The notes under the pieces: generated by a model
What the model was told of the DNA's origin: nothing
Databases searched by the model: none
Seen by the model: the letters and a program-made list of their open reading frames with translations, nothing else
Position numbers and translations under genes: made by a program
In this document: positions 1 to 44,897 of the stretch, piece by piece
Layout of the letters: each line of letters opens with the position of its first letter
How positions within the stretch are numbered: position 1 is the first letter of the stretch
Assembly: GCA_016840315.1 (NCBI GenBank)
Contig: JAEOSO010000001.1
Span: 1-44,897 of the forward strand
DNA length: 44,897 bases
Origin: Candidatus Borrarchaeota archaeon
GTDB taxonomy: Archaea > Asgardarchaeota > Sifarchaeia > Borrarchaeales > Borrarchaeaceae
Direction: 5' to 3'

Positions 1-165
1 AGTTGTGACTGTGATAACGTGATAGAGAGGGACAAAAATAGTGCGATCATCCTAATGAAACGTTACCTATCACAGAATGCCAAGTGGACGGGCTATCGGG
101 TATTTCTCGATAATCTGCGACACACAGCCGAATGTAAAACGAAAGTTTCTCCCGTAGGGAGTTAG
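1..165 (+). CDS. tnpB: TnpB-like (IS200/IS605 OrfB) C-terminal end; the 5' part lies outside the window
   Basis: Frame 1 from base 1 reads SCDCDNVIERDKNSAIILMKRYL. This is the second Cys pair of the TnpB zinc finger followed by the RuvC-III D-R-D-x-N type motif. Stop TAG at 163-165. GC-richer than the AT-rich flank that begins near 210. Confidence 0.55.
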   Translation, partial: SCDCDNVIERDKNSAIILMKRYLSQNAKWTGYRVFLDNLRHTAECKTKVSPVGS

Positions 166-209
166 GAGGACTCGCAGGAAGTCCCATCCGTCAGAGTGGG
201 GTAGTTCAC
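66..209 (+). ncRNA. TnpB omega (right-end) RNA scaffold, copy 1, ending in GTAGTTCAC at 209
   Basis: About 140 nt overlapping the 3' end of the tnpB fragment. Homologous to 44213-44352 with stem-preserving differences (TATCG/CGATA versus CATCC/GGATG). A terminal hairpin CCCA...TGGG is followed by GTAGTTCAC, a terminus shared with other IS ends in the window. Confidence 0.5.
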
Positions 210-28250: not shown

Positions 28251-28561
28251 GTCAATTACCCCTCCCTGTCGGAAGGGGCTTGAAAGAGTCCCTGTAGAGG
28301 GGTAGGAGATTAGCCTGAGTGATGTCTCCTCCAGGGTGGAGGCAGATGAACTACGTTCGGGGCTGAGTGTCTGAAAATCACCCCGGAATGCTCCTCAAGT
28401 TCCGGGCTCTGAAAGACATGGTGGACGACCCAGGTCGCTATCCTGAGACCTGCACCATCATCATGTCCTGTGCCTGCCCCAACATTGGCGATGAGGACCT
28501 ACCCGCTTCGGCGGAGCTGACCTTTACAGGTCGTTAAAGATAGTTAGTTTGGGAGTTGTTA
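28251..28561 (+). ncRNA. Predicted IscB omega RNA scaffold (upstream of and abutting iscB); limits approximate
   Basis: About 310 nt, non-coding and GC-rich. Many local stems: AGGAGA/TCTCCT, CCGGAA-11nt-TTCCGG, CCGC-TTCG-GCGG, GACCT-TTAC-AGGTC. Its position matches known IscB systems. Confidence 0.55.
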
Positions 28562-29770
28562 ATGTTACTGATGAAAGCCTACGTTCAAACTGCACGGGGA
28601 AAACCCTTAGACCCTACCACTCCGGCCAGAGCTAGACTCTTGATAGCAGGAGGCCGAGCAAAAGTGGTAGCGCGAACGCCGTTCACCATTCGTATGCTAA
28701 ACCGAGACATGGGCTATACTACCGAAGTAACGCTGGGAATTGATAGCGGCTATTCAAAGGTGGGGTTTTCAGCCGTTACCCAGAAAGAGGAACTGCTGGC
28801 GGGCGAACTGGCGTTACGAAGCGACATGTCTAAGAAATTGGAGCAGAAGAGAAACTATCGAAGAAACCGGCGCAGCCGCAATACCCGATATCGGGTGCCG
28901 CGGTTTGATAACCGGAAACGGGAAGAGGGTTGGTTGGCCCCATCTCTTCGCCATAAGAAGCAAGCTCATATCACACTGATTGAAATGATTAAGACCCTGG
29001 TACCCGTCATCCATACCGAACTGGAGGTAGCTACCTTTGATACCCAGTTGCTACAAAACCCGGAAATCTCGGGGGTCGAATATCAACAGGGGACGTTGCA
29101 AGGTTACCATATACGAGAGTACCTGCTGGAAAAATGGGGACGGAAGTGCGCCTATTGCGGAAAAACTGGAGTGCCACTTCAGGTGGAACATATCATCCCC
29201 AAGTCACGGGGTGGCAGTGATCGGGTCTCGAACCTCACCCTGAGTTGTAGCTGCTGCAATCAGCAAAAAGGTGATCGCACCGCCGCCGAGTTCGCCCACC
29301 CTGAAATCCAACGACAGGCGAAGACATCAATGAAAAGCGCGACTTTCATGAATCTGGTCCGATGGCAACTGGTTAACGACTTGGAGTGCAATCACACGTA
29401 CGGCTACCTCACCAAGAAACGACGGATTGAGGCGGGGTTAGTAAAATCACACCTCAATGACGCCTTTATTATCGCCGGAGGCCACCAGCAAATCAGGTGT
29501 AGCCCCTTCATGTTGATCCAACCCCGGCGCAACAATAGAAGTATCCAATTGAATAGAAAAGGGTATGGACGCAGCATCCGGACACAACGGTATGTCTTAC
29601 AGCCTCATGACCTCGTCTCTTATGAGGGACTGCGGTGTCAGGTCAAGGGAATGTTCAACCGGGGGCGTTGGGTGCGATTGAAAACCCCAACCGGCGCTAC
29701 CGTTAATACCCACGTCAAAAAAGTGAAATTAGTGAGGTATGGCAGCGGCTTGCAGTTCAGCCGCCCATAA
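28562..29770 (+). CDS. iscB: IscB RNA-guided nuclease (RuvC split by HNH), apparently intact
   Basis: PLMP-like N-terminus (GKPLDP..ARLLIAGGRAKVV), RuvC-I GIDSGYSKVGFS, Arg-rich helix RNYRRNRRSRNTRYRVPRFDNR and RuvC-II LEVATFD. HNH is CAYCG..LQVEHIIPKSRGGSDRVSNLTLSCSCCNQQKG. RuvC-III is KSHLNDAFIIAG, followed by a beta-rich C-terminal tail. Alternative ATG at 28571. Confidence 0.85.
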   Translation: MLLMKAYVQTARGKPLDPTTPARARLLIAGGRAKVVARTPFTIRMLNRDMGYTTEVTLGIDSGYSKVGFSAVTQKEELLAGELALRSDMSKKLEQKRNYRRNRRSRNTRYRVPRFDNRKREEGWLAPSLRHKKQAHITLIEMIKTLVPVIHTELEVATFDTQLLQNPEISGVEYQQGTLQGYHIREYLLEKWGRKCAYCGKTGVPLQVEHIIPKSRGGSDRVSNLTLSCSCCNQQKGDRTAAEFAHPEIQRQAKTSMKSATFMNLVRWQLVNDLECNHTYGYLTKKRRIEAGLVKSHLNDAFIIAGGHQQIRCSPFMLIQPRRNNRSIQLNRKGYGRSIRTQRYVLQPHDLVSYEGLRCQVKGMFNRGRWVRLKTPTGATVNTHVKKVKLVRYGSGLQFSRP

Positions 29771-29999
29771 TAACAAACTAACTCACTCATGGTAATCCCA
29801 GGCCTCCTGTACTCTCAGACTTAGTTAGTTATGGAGACCCTCTTTTCGGAGGTGTGAGAGAGAGGAAGAAACGCGATTCTCTTACCAAAATGCGATCAGA
29901 GAGTCATCTCCTGCCTCTCTGAAGGGGTTTTCTCGCTGATATCAGATAAAGTTTTAAAAGAAAACCTATTGACAAATTGCATAAAACTAAATATCATCA

Positions 30000-42002: not shown

Positions 42003-42631
42003 AGGGGGTGACAAAATTTCAAAAAAACTCTCTAAAAAACTCATTACGTCTCGTTGAAAGAGAAACCAGTGAAAAAAGCACTGTAGAAGAACGCGAGAGA
42101 CCAAAAAAGGAATATGTAGTCAAAATAATCGTTGCTGGAGACGGGGGCGTAGGGAAAACAAGTTTACTAAATAGATATATCTCAAATGAATTTGTAGAAG
42201 GCATGAAACTTACTGTCGGGACTGATTTCTTTACTCACGTCTGCGACTGTAAAGGGCGTACCTTAAAAATTCAAGTCTGGGATTTTGGTGGCGAACCAAG
42301 ATTCAGATTCATCCTCCCAGATTATTGCAAGGGTGCGTGCGGTGTTTTGCTGGCCTTTGACCTAAATGATTTTGCCACGTTGATAAACTTGAATGAATGG
42401 CTACAAATTATCAGGGAAAACGTAGCAGATTCCGTAACAATTCTGGTTGGAACGAAAGCAGACCACGCAGAGTTTTTGGACGAGGAAACTATTAAACAAT
42501 TTTGTATAATAAATGAAATCGACGAATTCATCCCAACAAGTTCGAAAACGGGTGAAAACGTAGATTTTGTATTTTACGAGTTAATAAGACGTATTATAAC
42601 AAAAAAAATAAGTTTTGGCGGGGTTAAGTAA
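41999..42631 (+). CDS. Ras/Rab-like small GTPase
   Basis: G1 GDGGVGKT, switch I Thr (LTVGTDF), G3 WDFGGEPRF, G4 TKAD, G5 SSK. Start uncertain (TTG 41999 or GTG 42008). Confidence 0.8.
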   Translation: MKGVTKFQKNSLKNSLRLVERETSEKSTVEERERPKKEYVVKIIVAGDGGVGKTSLLNRYISNEFVEGMKLTVGTDFFTHVCDCKGRTLKIQVWDFGGEPRFRFILPDYCKGACGVLLAFDLNDFATLINLNEWLQIIRENVADSVTILVGTKADHAEFLDEETIKQFCIINEIDEFIPTSSKTGENVDFVFYELIRRIITKKISFGGVK

Positions 42632-42990
42632 TGTTAAACAGTCTGGCAGAGAATGAAAGTAATAATCAAAATCCAAATTTGGAAATTTTATTCTTTACGT
42701 CTTCCATTAATCCTCATCCTAAGATAGAAAAATATCTTGTAGAGACGATTGAGAAAAGAAAATTACCGATAAAAGTTACTAAGATAGACGTATTAAGAGC
42801 CCCGGAAGCCGCGGAGAAACATAATATAATCGTATGCCCTACACTTATTTTCCGTGACTTTATGAAAGTGTACGGTAATTGTGAGCAAGAAGAACTAGAA
42901 GACCTTTTATCTACCTATGGTTCTCTGACGACTTCTGAATTTCAGCATCAATCAGTCATTACACCAATTGGTGAGAGTCATTATGTATAA
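42631..42990 (+). CDS. KaiB/thioredoxin-fold protein, paralog 1 (no CxxC)
   Basis: LEILFFTSSINPHP..IDVLRAPEAAEKHNIIVCPTLIF, with a cis-Pro loop of the Trx fold. The ATG overlaps the GTPase stop (TAATG). Confidence 0.65.
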   Translation: MLNSLAENESNNQNPNLEILFFTSSINPHPKIEKYLVETIEKRKLPIKVTKIDVLRAPEAAEKHNIIVCPTLIFRDFMKVYGNCEQEELEDLLSTYGSLTTSEFQHQSVITPIGESHYV

Positions 42991-43342
42991 TAGTCCAACG
43001 GTAGAGAATGCAAGTCATAATCAAAATCCAAATTTGGAAATTTTATTCTTTACGTCTCCCTTTAGTCCTCATCCCAAACTAGAGCGGCGGCTTTTGAAGG
43101 CGATTGAAAAAAAAGAATTGCCAATAAAGGTAACCAAAATAAATGTTTTAAGAGCCCCCGAGGCTGCGGAGGAATATAATATAGTCGCATGTCCCACACT
43201 TATTTTCCGCAACTTCATGAAAGTATATGGAAATTGTGAACGAGAAGAGTTGGAAGAGCTAGTATTAAATTATTCCTTATTGTCTTCAGAATTTCAACAT
43301 CAATCAACTATTACAGCTTTTGGCGGTGTAAATCATGTTTAA
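42983..43342 (+). CDS. KaiB/thioredoxin-fold protein, paralog 2 (no CxxC)
   Basis: Near-duplicate of paralog 1, sharing a stretch of about 38 identical nt (aatcaaaatccaaatttggaaattttattctttacgtc). The ATG overlaps the preceding stop by 8 nt. Confidence 0.65.
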   Translation: MYNSPTVENASHNQNPNLEILFFTSPFSPHPKLERRLLKAIEKKELPIKVTKINVLRAPEAAEEYNIVACPTLIFRNFMKVYGNCEREELEELVLNYSLLSSEFQHQSTITAFGGVNHV

Positions 43343-43685
43343 CTATCCGACAACAGAGAAAAAAAACCATAATCAAGATTCAATTTTGGAAATCTTATTT
43401 TTTTCCTCGCCAGCATGCGGTCCTTGCCCCATAATGGAAAAACGTATTTTAGAAGCAATAGACAAAAAGAAATTGCCAATAAAAGTGAAGAAAATCGATG
43501 TTATAAAATATCCTGAGGCAGCAGAGGAATATGATGTAGTAGCGTGTCCAACACTTATTTTTCCCAACTTTATGAGAGTGTGTGGTTGCTATGAGACAGA
43601 GATCATTGAGGAATTGATATCTACTTATTTTGCTTCTGCTTTTGAATTTCAGACGATCAAGCAACCAGAAATAAGTTCTAAATGA
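43335..43685 (+). CDS. Thioredoxin-like protein, paralog 3, with a canonical CGPC motif
   Basis: LEILFFSSPACGPCP..IDVIKYPEAAEEYDVVACPTLIF. Same 8-nt overlap junction as paralog 2. Confidence 0.7.
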   Translation: MFNYPTTEKKNHNQDSILEILFFSSPACGPCPIMEKRILEAIDKKKLPIKVKKIDVIKYPEAAEEYDVVACPTLIFPNFMRVCGCYETEIIEELISTYFASAFEFQTIKQPEISSK

Positions 43686-43704
43686 TTGAACAAAGCAAAT
43701 TAAT

Positions 43705-43935
43705 TTACTCTGGACGACGTTCTGGAATAGAGCCCGTTTGTTTGCCTGACGCAAAAAGTTCTTTCGTTAAATACAGGCCGCAATAACATTGACCATATTC
43801 TTCCAAATCAGGTTTAGCATACACACAAGGGCAGATTATATCCTTATCTTCGTCCCTCAAGCCCTCCACAAGTCGACAGGGGCAAGAAAAATACTCATAG
43901 CGATTCCAGTTAGTTGTCAATCCTTCACGAAGCAA
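43705..43935 (-). CDS. Ferredoxin:thioredoxin reductase catalytic-subunit-like protein, 5'-truncated by a MITE; the conserved frame continues to 43968
   Basis: CPCRLVEGLRDEDKDIICPCVYAKPDLEEYGQCYCGLY shows the CPC..CPC..C(H/Y)C signature. Only a TTG start remains at 43935. Confidence 0.65.
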   Translation of the reverse strand: MLREGLTTNWNRYEYFSCPCRLVEGLRDEDKDIICPCVYAKPDLEEYGQCYCGLYLTKELFASGKQTGSIPERRPE

Positions 43936-43968
43936 CTGTACAAGTTCTTTATCGTGATTTAACTTTAT

Positions 43969-44352
43969 CGGCGGGAAGTCCCCATCCGACAGCGAGGATA
44001 TGAAAGCCGCTAGCTTTATATAGTTTGTTGCAACGAAGAGTTACGATGAATATCGGGAGGAAGGCAGGGATACAAGACTCCCGGTAGGAGGACAGAAGAG
44101 GCGGCCTTGTGAGCGAGGATTTTACAGTTGTTAACCAGCGCGAATAACCGCGAAGGTAACAGTACAATGGCATTTGACGAATCCGTATAGTGTGATGCTG
44201 GAACTGAAGTTTCCTATCACAGAATGCCAGGTGGACGGGCCATCCTCAAAAGGGGATGAACTGCGACACACAGCCGAACGTAAAACGAGAGTTTCCCGCA
44301 TGGGTTGGGAGGACTCGCAGGAAGCTCCAGCCGTAAGGGTGGAGTAGTTCAC
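43969..44352 (+). mobile_element. tnpB-less IS200/IS605-derived MITE (384 bp) carrying an omega-RNA scaffold
   Basis: GC-rich. It starts after TTAT (43965-43968) with a hairpin region similar to the right-end hairpin and ends in GTAGTTCAC (44344-44352). No long ORF in the sense orientation. Confidence 0.65.
44213..44352 (+). ncRNA. Orphan TnpB omega (right-end) RNA scaffold, copy 2 of the 66-209 family
   Basis: Aligns over about 140 nt with 66-209, with identical blocks (cctatcacagaatgcc, ctgcgacacacagccgaa, ggaggactcgcaggaag) and compensatory stem changes. Confidence 0.55.
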
Positions 44353-44379
44353 TTCCCAGCCTTGATGTTTGGCAACCAT
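44353..44379 (-). pseudogene. Displaced first nine codons (MVAKHQGWE) of the interrupted FTR-like gene
   Basis: ATG at 44379. The reading frame runs directly into the MITE right end. It joins 43968 in frame if 43969-44352 is removed. Confidence 0.5.
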
Positions 44380-44469
44380 TTTAGTAAATAATTATGTATC
44401 TTCGATGGCTTTTTTCGTAATGACACATCACCATTCTAATAAACAAAATATCTTAGTAGCGAGATTTCA

Positions 44470-44897
44470 TCAGTATATGCCGAATACTGCTCCGTATTCA
44501 GCTTCATCAAAGCCAACTACACATTTTTTATCATCAACAATAAGAAAAGGATAGGAAACATATCGACCGAATTTTTCTTTCAAAACTTCACGTAATTTAT
44601 TTGCAGTATTTTCGGTTAATTCATCTACATACACATATTCAAATTCAATAGAATTAGCCCTCAAGAATTCAAGTGCACGACGACCAAATCCGCCTCTTGA
44701 CAACACGTAAAGTCTTACTTTCCAACGTTTATTTTCGCCGGGTTCGCGTATAAATTGTATCTCTGATGGATGTGTAGGAGTGGGTTCAGGTATTTCAGGA
44801 GGAACAGGAGTGGGTTCAGGTATTTCAGGAGGAACAGGAGTGGGTTCAGGAATTTCAGGAGTAACAGGGGTGGGTTCGGGTATTTCAGGAGGAACAG
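44470..44897 (-). CDS. Glutaredoxin-fold protein lacking CxxC, with an N-terminal Pro-rich decapeptide repeat; the N-terminus lies outside the window
   Basis: KVRLYVLSRGGFGRRALEFL..YPFLIVDDKKCVVGF follows the Grx/NrdH pattern but has GFGR in place of CxxC. The frame stays open upstream to the window end. Confidence 0.6.
   Translation of the reverse strand, partial: VPPEIPEPTPVTPEIPEPTPVPPEIPEPTPVPPEIPEPTPTHPSEIQFIREPGENKRWKVRLYVLSRGGFGRRALEFLRANSIEFEYVYVDELTENTANKLREVLKEKFGRYVSYPFLIVDDKKCVVGFDEAEYGAVFGIY
44777..44897 (-). repeat. 30-nt tandem repeat, at least 4 copies, coding (VPPEIPEPTP)n
   Basis: ggagtgggttcaggtatttcaggaggaaca repeated head to tail with 0-4 mismatches. It continues past the window end. 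Confidence 0.9.

Follow-up and report, generated by a model that had tools for sequence, protein, structure and literature searches.

The stretch of DNA analysed here ("the window") comprises 44,897 nt of contig JAEOSO010000001.1 (GCA_016840315.1) of Candidatus Borrarchaeota archaeon; all coordinates are those of the window. Its gene content is archaeal and includes GatD/GatE, Nop5, the PAN ATPase, Trm1 and small GTPases of the Ras/Roc type. Close to its right end, a minus-strand gene resembling the catalytic subunit of ferredoxin:thioredoxin reductase (FTR) is interrupted by a 390-nt insert, which is GC-richer (about 50%, 46–56%) than its flanks (about 35%). This insert is very probably a palindrome-associated transposable element (PATE), a protein-less internal-deletion derivative of an IS605-type insertion sequence (IS; tnpA + tnpB) that has retained an omega-RNA, proposed to be used in trans. 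The insertion site and the split gene comprise the following features:

43963–44352, plus strand: whole non-autonomous element (PATE), 390 nt, delimited by the empty allele L101 and by full-length copies.
43958–43962, plus strand: target site and predicted transposon-adjacent motif (TAM) TTTAA, directly 5' of the element and kept as (T)TTAA before related left ends.
44353–44379, minus strand: 5' fragment of the FTR-like gene, MVAKHQGWE, with its ATG at 44379, from the open reading frame (ORF) and the homologue alignment.
43705–43962, minus strand: 3' fragment of the FTR-like gene, 85 codons (LNHDKELV...RRPE) and a stop codon, with CPC..CPC..CYC and a match to PF02943.
44392–44394, minus strand: in-frame TAA within a 16-aa N-terminal extension conserved in homologues, from comparison with other alleles.

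The second piece of the gene (..LNHDKELVQLLREGLTTNWNRYEYFSCPCR..) runs from 43962 down to the stop codon at 43705, and the insertion point corresponds to codon 9/10. Fusion of the two pieces restores an ORF of 94 aa from ATG 44379, which matches PF02943 (FeThRed_B; E = 1.3e-21, 77 bits) and is 91% identical to protein P0001. Homologues number 418, many of them named FTR catalytic domain proteins of Asgard archaea, and the best named relatives belong to the Promethearchaeota, Hodarchaeota and Odinarchaeota. The motifs CPC, CPC and CYC are invariant in the homologue alignment, indicating a PF02943 protein with three CxC motifs. By family membership, the split gene can be classified as FTR catalytic-subunit-like. 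The same assignment, based on these motifs, had been made in the first-pass annotation of this DNA, and the alignment to the FTR family recommended there bears it out. At the junction, homologues read MVAKHQGW-(E/K/Q)-LNHD throughout. The N terminus MVAKHQGWE-IKLNHD expected in that annotation does not agree with them as written (MVAKHQGW-E/K-LNHD) but does so after a 6-nt shift of the boundary, and the fused protein that it gave, of 96 aa, carries two extra residues, EI.

The boundaries of the element follow from an empty allele of the same locus. Contigs carrying alleles were retrieved by look-up of a neighbouring thioredoxin protein, and come from other samples of the same population. One of them, L101, matches window positions 43300–43962 at 99.7% and then passes straight into 44353–44452; its junction, GTGATTTAA/TTCCCAGCC, joins 43962 exactly to 44353. 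The empty allele reads TTTAA/TTCCC and the occupied one TTTAA-(390 nt)-TTCCC, without target duplication at the junctions. Once 43963–44352 is removed, no gap is needed to align the DNA with the intact syntenic genes of L008 and L009. The L101 junction, together with the homologue-like fusion, therefore defines the element as 43963–44352, inserted 3' of TTTAA without duplication of the target. In alignments that include the flanks, seven copies from different loci have T-TTAA followed by CTTTATCGG... in common at the left end, their similarity beginning at T-TTAA-CTTTATCGGCGGGAAG; on the right, similarity ends precisely with GTAGTTCAC, each copy continuing with different bases. About 25 related elements have (T)TTAA in front of their left ends, and for the archaeal SisTnpB1 the TAM determined by experiment is TTTAA (bioRxiv 10.1101/2023.03.06.531077).

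The occupied site is present in independent assemblies L096, L098, L099, L103, L104 and L110, the first three being 99.9–100% identical to the window across the insert, and chance as well as an assembly artefact is thus ruled out by at least six independent assemblies. Other delimitations of the insert failed. The first-pass annotation had correctly recognised an insert that splits the gene, as confirmed by PF02943 and the alleles, but had placed it at 43969–44352 (384 nt), directly after TTAT. This sequence is internal to the element, and the 384-nt excision leaves two residues foreign to all homologues and conflicts with L101, the empty-site allele whose search had been suggested there. A 389-nt element with the target TTAAC would leave a frameshift in the restored gene and is likewise contradicted by L101. 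Slippage deletion between the ACTT microhomologies (43962–43965 and 44351–44354) predicts TTTAACTTCCC, whereas TTTAATTCCC is observed. An intron or IStron was rejected since no intron family match was found and the junctions of the empty allele are of the transposon type.

Neither the ORF list nor tblastn revealed a TnpA or TnpB ORF in the insert, as had been stated at first reading. The two ends, CTTTATCGG... and ...GTAGTTCAC, do not form inverted repeats. The initial label of miniature inverted-repeat transposable element (MITE) does not apply in the strict sense, since both terminal inverted repeats and target duplication are absent, and the element is a PATE by the definition of PMC3119063. 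Further copies, also anticipated in the first-pass annotation, were sought by using a conserved 28-mer to fetch loci, followed by blastn of the insert against them; the genome scan covered GTDB representative genomes, a set that does not contain the window's own genome. DNA relatives were found in Borrarchaeum and Sifarchaeum metagenome-assembled genomes (MAGs). Six further full-length copies occupy unrelated loci in MAGs of Borrarchaeum yapensis, Sifarchaeum marinoarchaea and B. weybense; those in L002, L003, L005, L006 and L007 are 85–92% identical to the insert, compared with 97.7% for the orthologous insert of L104. Because the same deletion architecture recurs at six or more sites, the family is a "homogeneous" PATE. 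Shorter variants were found in L001, L004 (L004:2511–2684) and L012 (about 325 nt, L012:3907–4230); they lost differing internal parts, while the RNA scaffold is always complete.

The 3' part of the element contains this scaffold and the sequences associated with it:

44213–44352, plus strand: omega-RNA scaffold, full-length match to the 140-nt model R1 (166 bits), ending at the right-end boundary.
44325–44352, plus strand: right-end subterminal hairpin CTCCAGCC-GTAA-GGGTGGAG (44325–44344) and terminal motif GTAGTTCAC, helix 8 of R1.
44353–44372, plus strand: predicted guide TTCCCAGCCTTGATGTTTGG in the right-end flank, antisense to codons 3–9 of the split gene, from IS200/IS605 geometry.
44169–44228, plus strand: possible 5' extension of the RNA, with stems GGCATT (44169–44174)/AATGCC (44223–44228) and TGTGAT (44191–44196)/ATCACA (44216–44221), from the minimum free energy fold and RNAalifold.
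44015–44022, plus strand: TATA-like box TTTATATA, an AT-rich box in all PATE copies.

The covariance model R1 was built from the aligned last 140 nt of twelve copies (the PATEs, the tnpB 3' end at the window start, here termed copy 1, and L012, L013 and L022) and contains 39 pairs. In the window it matches 44213–44352 and 66–209 (148 bits) and nothing else. A scan of metagenomes with the full-length TnpBs P0125, P0135 and P0169 yielded 80 loci, and the 81 matches of R1 comprise its 12 training sequences and 69 in these loci. All of the latter sit at tnpB 3' ends, and about 70 of the 80 loci carry the structure there. Paired cells amount to 94.5%, a value inflated by fitting the alignment to R1, against 31–42% when the 3' partners are slid by 1–3 columns. 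Double-sided changes occur in 30 of 39 pairs (318 cells), and none of 500 shuffles attained the observed values. The position of the scaffold at tnpB 3' ends and the strong covariation therefore justify the name omega-RNA. The window PATE forms 38 of the 39 consensus pairs, so that the orphan omega-RNA scaffold reported at the end of the insert in the first-pass annotation is well supported. Among six non-orthologous copies, the scaffold is the most conserved PATE segment, with 91.5% identity as against 84–85% elsewhere, and 80% of its columns are invariant compared with about 60% in the rest.

In the structure, the closing helix GUGGAC/GUUCAC sets the 5' part of the scaffold beside the guide junction. 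The others include a CUGCGA/UCGCAG helix and the terminal hairpin, the latter serving also as right-end hairpin; this helix 8 carries compensatory changes in seven of its nine pairs across the family and one G.G mismatch in the window copy. All copies end in a sequence like GT(A/C)GTTCAC. The predicted guide is antisense to the first codons of the split gene, as the first-pass annotation had stated, because the guide of IS200/IS605 omega-RNAs is always the right-end flank. Elsewhere in the window, no match to it occurs when up to three mismatches are allowed. The empty allele L101 recreates both TAM and guide, with TTTAA directly followed by TTCCCAGCCTTGATGT.

Upstream of the scaffold, the stems at 44169–44228 look like a shortened version of a coding-enclosing stem in copy 1, where the arms CTGTGATA (8–15) and TATCACAG (69–76) enclose a 53-nt coding loop; the loop of the PATE has 19 nt. 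An AT-rich box is present about 55 nt upstream of the tnpB ATG in L022, and TTTATATA is probably the former tnpB promoter, now the sole candidate promoter for the RNA.

Searches for the parents of the PATE family started from the 54-aa TnpB C terminus at the window start. With this query, a word-based protein search returned three short fragments only, and an exhaustive profile search, with a profile built from the C-terminal fragment (window 1–165) and its three database relatives, was required to find the full-length TnpBs P0125, P0135 and P0169 among numerous short ones. Fragments of fewer than 200 aa make up most of the database relatives of the TnpB C terminus (P0124–P0225), and P0127 (200 aa) is an internal-deletion protein. 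In the window, two features derive from tnpB:

44122–44184, plus strand: decayed tnpB coding remnant, approximately codons 313–333 of L022 TnpB, from tblastn.
1–209, plus strand: copy 1, with the last 54 tnpB codons (1–165, ..CDCDNVIERDKNSAIILMKRYLSQNAKWTGY..), overlapping scaffold (66–209) and right end ..GTAGTTCAC, from R1.

A complete element is present in L022, where TTTAA is followed by the left end CTTATGCGGTGGGAAGTCCCCTTCCGACAGGTGGGGG.., a 396-aa TnpB (PF12323, PF01385 and PF07282) and the right end ..GGAGTAGTTCAC. Its two ends are 78% identical to those of the insert, and its 3' end is 86% identical to window positions 1–209. When L022 TnpB was compared with the PATE copies by tblastn, coding remnants were found in L003 (E = 5e-5) and L007 (E = 5e-4), the window copy giving a weak match (E = 0.026). 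In L016 and L020, the same left end is followed by a Y1 transposase (PF01797) and then by tnpB; the parent was therefore an IS605-type element with both tnpA and tnpB. These elements and the L022 tnpB answer the call for a cognate full-length tnpB made at first reading. A motif scan of the flanks of L001–L007 revealed no tnpB, L004 having only another short variant there.

Copy 1 is the tnpB copy that the first-pass annotation had seen at the window start; a tnpB 3' end is indeed present, but it holds the last 54 codons only. The last 144 nt of the insert are 80% identical to window positions 62–209 (tnpB 3' end and downstream sequence), and both terminate in GTAGTTCAC. Independent contigs of the GatD/GatE region (L094 and L095) begin within the 3' end of tnpB, either at window position 1 or 15 nt further on. 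This suggests that the contig start is a repeat-induced assembly break and that the genome carries several tnpB copies.

Another feature bears on the mobility of this particular copy:

43970–44010, plus strand: region of the left-end subterminal hairpin, with the outer stem GGCGG/CCGC(C) kept and the inner CCCC..CC-GACA-GG..GGGG destroyed.

The hairpins at the two ends of the family elements have the same orientation, GGAAG-CCCC..GGGG on the left and GGAAG-CTCC..GGAG on the right, and covary. The likeness of the left end to the right-end hairpin, noticed in the first-pass annotation, thus reflects real homology, although in this copy the 3' arm is mutated and does not fold. The left-end hairpin folds and covaries in L001, L003, L007, L020, L034 and L074. 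In the window and L104, four clustered substitutions remove its 3' arm: both read GCGAGGATATG, shared also by L096, where others have GGCAGGGGATG or GGTGGGGGATG, and no fold is formed. The orthologous insert of L110 (SRR30965922; L110:936–987 corresponding to window 43963–44014) has the intact hairpin GGCAGGGGATG, with –8.2 kcal/mol. Since its left-end hairpin is destroyed, the window copy is probably not excisable and would be an immobile, fixed gene disruption. The population holds excisable-looking and dead versions of one insertion.

The following scheme is proposed for the element. Its insertion 3' of TTTAA, at codon 9/10 of the FTR-like gene, would have followed the single-strand "peel-and-paste" route. 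It retains the left and right ends on which a Y1 TnpA could act in trans, and the whole omega-RNA scaffold, the usual position of which overlaps the tnpB 3' end. The RNA may be transcribed from the TATA-like box, reading its guide from the right flank (TTCCCAGCCTTGATGT...), and may be loaded by the TnpB of a full-length relative in the same genome, much as the first-pass annotation had suggested, a candidate being the tnpB whose 3' end opens the window. The complex could then cut chromosome copies that lack the element, recognised by TTTAA and the guide match, and repair from an occupied copy would follow, so that the PATE would be retained without a coding cost. Comparable steps are known from other systems: the omega-RNA guide is the right flank and the TAM is the TnpA target on the left flank, and TnpB cuts the rejoined empty site, forcing homologous repair from the occupied copy (PMC8612924, PMC10055086). 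PATEs often encode omega-RNAs that need to be used in trans (PMC10055086). The sequence prerequisites for homing are all present; transcription, loading of TnpB in trans and homing cleavage are inferred.

Several observations weigh against an RNA that functions in this way. The TATA box is a motif match only, and the percentage of paired cells is inflated, as mentioned above. No Rfam family matches at the gathering threshold over the whole window, and at E <= 10 the region 43900–44420 gives only chance-level matches (SscA, snoZ6), with none to RF02656 or RF02657; the scaffold is a separate lineage not curated in Rfam. The right-end helix could be kept as DNA for TnpA binding and not as RNA. 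With respect to the protein partners, the window holds only the 54 C-terminal TnpB codons of copy 1 and no complete TnpB, compatibility with that TnpB is assumed while the copy 1 scaffold is only 80% identical to that of the PATE, and no tnpA came to light in this genome, the tnpA-bearing relatives L016 and L020 deriving from other metagenomes.

An unlikely but not negligible explanation is that the insert is an inert deletion derivative of an IS200/IS605 element that spreads, or once spread, purely by TnpA acting in trans, its RNA module being unused and its 3' 140 nt preserved only by the youth of the copies and by the need of TnpA for a right end. Copies that are 85–92% identical have had little time for decay, and decay is common in this family, as evidenced by the short fragments that prevail among relatives of the TnpB C terminus. 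Of the two scaffold differences that separate the window from L104, neither is compensatory, and a pair is broken by one of them. On the other hand, the better conservation of the scaffold than of the remaining PATE, both in identity and in invariant columns, argues against passive survival, as do the 38 intact pairs. The scaffold far exceeds the 30–60 nt that a Y1 transposase needs at an end, and the independent deletion variants L001, L004 and L012 keep it whole while losing different upstream parts.

A highly improbable alternative is that the immobilised element was domesticated and serves the host, either through a promoter or start directed outwards to yield a truncated FTR-like protein or through regulation of the locus by an antisense or guide RNA. 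The loss of the left-end hairpin by clustered substitutions beside an intact RNA part would fit this idea, and the TATA-like box is nearly palindromic on inspection of the sequence and could fire towards the gene remnant. In addition, between the two occupied alleles of the window and L104, the 85 codons past the insert (43705–43962) show three synonymous and one non-synonymous substitution, a pN/pS of 0.09 with P of about 0.03 under neutrality in a binomial estimate based on four substitutions only; the fragment may still be under selection. This signal is small, however, and recombination among the alleles is evident. There is no in-frame start for the downstream fragment ahead of TTG 43935, so the N-terminal part of the domain, which is conserved, would be lost. 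Moreover, the N-terminal extension carries the TAA and a 12-nt deletion just upstream of it in every allele, occupied (window, L104) as well as empty (L101), and the empty allele persists in the population. A PATE with a retained omega-RNA, probably served in trans, explains these observations best.

The empty allele could itself bear on this proposal. Its flanks are closest to those of the window (99.7%), with shared derived bases at 43868 and 44409; since the insert is present in the more distant strain L104 (97.7%) whereas L101 and the window group together, loss in L101 is the more parsimonious reading. L101 contains a complex lesion, TTG>C, 17–19 bp downstream of TTTAA and within the guide-matched sequence (L101:1673–1700 corresponding to window 44353–44380), and this change is derived in L101, as L008 and L009, the outgroups, have the window sequence there. 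A T6>T5 change in a run and a single-nucleotide polymorphism close by are further differences of L101. TnpB of ISDra2 cuts 15–21 bp from the TAM (PMC8612924), and the TTTAA-dependent SisTnpB1 cuts at 15–18 and 20–28 nt (bioRxiv 10.1101/2023.03.06.531077). Error-prone repair at the position of the lesion would make the site immune to re-cutting. That L101 is a product of excision followed by omega-RNA-guided cutting, rather than an untouched ancestral site, is nevertheless improbable. It is a single empty contig, its four differences within 60 nt of the junction fit equally well a short recombination tract from a diverged empty allele, and site 44395 does not fit the tree. The window-type left end also looks excision-dead, although the hairpin of L110 is intact. 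If the reading were true, a protein-less PATE would program TnpB in trans, and L101 would show the scar left in a wild archaeal population by RNA-guided cleavage that a transposon encodes.

The window contains a further IS200/IS605-type element at 28251–29951, in the opposite orientation, which holds a complete IscB gene (ORF 28556–29770, plus strand). Its product has 404 aa, with RRXRR and HNH domains, and matches NF040563 (guided_IscB) with 383 bits. The ends are PATE-like: on the minus strand the element begins with CTTTATCTGATATCAGCGAGAAAACCCC.. at 29951, after TTTTAAAA, and finishes at 28251 with a CCCCTTCCGACAGGGAGGGG hairpin and GTAATTGAC. The omega-RNA of this element should lie at 28251–28555 on the plus strand. 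One and the same TnpA could serve to move the PATE as well as the tnpB and iscB elements.

Next to the split gene, three tandem thioredoxin-like paralogues of about 116–124 aa occupy 42631–43685, with a period of 355 nt and 65–89% DNA identity. Together with the FTR-like gene and a glutaredoxin-like gene they form what looks like a thiol-redox cluster, retained in the syntenic loci L008–L011. The minus-strand glutaredoxin-like gene contains, in its N-terminal part, a 30-nt tandem repeat (44746–44895; at least four units, 93–97% identical) that extends to the end of the window and codes for a repeat rich in Pro and Glu.

Use of orphan omega-RNAs in trans is a published idea (PMC10055086), and the element alone is not surprising. 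With this analysis, a PATE family that bears omega-RNAs is documented for Asgard archaea (Borr-, Sif- and related lineages), with the TAM TTTAA, its parents and a scaffold supported by covariation; this is useful for annotation and for mining compact TnpB/omega-RNA pairs. Such inserts also break gene calls, the FTR-like gene here having been called as fragments of 54–92 aa. The added value lies in the allele series at one locus, comprising occupied sites with an intact or a dead left end and an empty site with a lesion at the predicted cut position, which makes the homing/retention model directly testable in environmental read data.

Among known systems, the haloarchaeal IS1341 omega-RNAs (sotRNAs; Rfam RF02656 and RF02657, PMC12558985) are likewise archaeal sense-overlapping RNAs at the 3' end of tnpB, but neither family matches the Asgard scaffold, even at E <= 10. 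In ISDra2 (Karvelis et al. 2021, PMC8612924), the right end element RNA (reRNA) likewise spans both the 3' end of tnpB and the right end, with the right flank as guide, the left-flank target as TAM and a cut 15–21 bp away from the TAM; the TAM (TTGAT), the bacterial host and the scaffold sequence are different. The SisTnpB1 elements of Sulfolobus islandicus (bioRxiv 10.1101/2023.03.06.531077) are archaeal, contain tnpA and tnpB, and share the 5'-TTTAA TAM/target and the right-end omega-RNA, with staggered cleavage 15–28 nt from the TAM. They are full-length and protein-coding, and their likeness to the Asgard family concerns TAM and layout.

The PATEs of Haloquadratum walsbyi, especially HqIRS71 (Dyall-Smith et al. 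2011, PMC3119063), are similarly transposase-free, with near-terminal palindromes and neither terminal inverted repeats nor target duplication. They too are internal-deletion derivatives of IS605-type elements and form "homogeneous" families of more than 85–90% identity, and HqIRS71 keeps part of the C-terminal tnpB coding region. Their host is haloarchaeal, not Asgard, their sequences are unrelated, and the 3' region was not recognised as a guide RNA in 2011. The PATE-like elements of Geobacillus stearothermophilus (Meers et al. 2023, PMC10055086) are protein-less IS200/IS605 derivatives with omega-RNAs as well; they share their ends with tnpB and iscB elements, their TAM equals the TnpA target, and the homing/retention logic is the same. 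Their host is bacterial and they have other TAM and transposon-encoded motifs and another scaffold, while the natural occupied/empty polymorphism and the disruption of a gene are on the side of the Asgard element.

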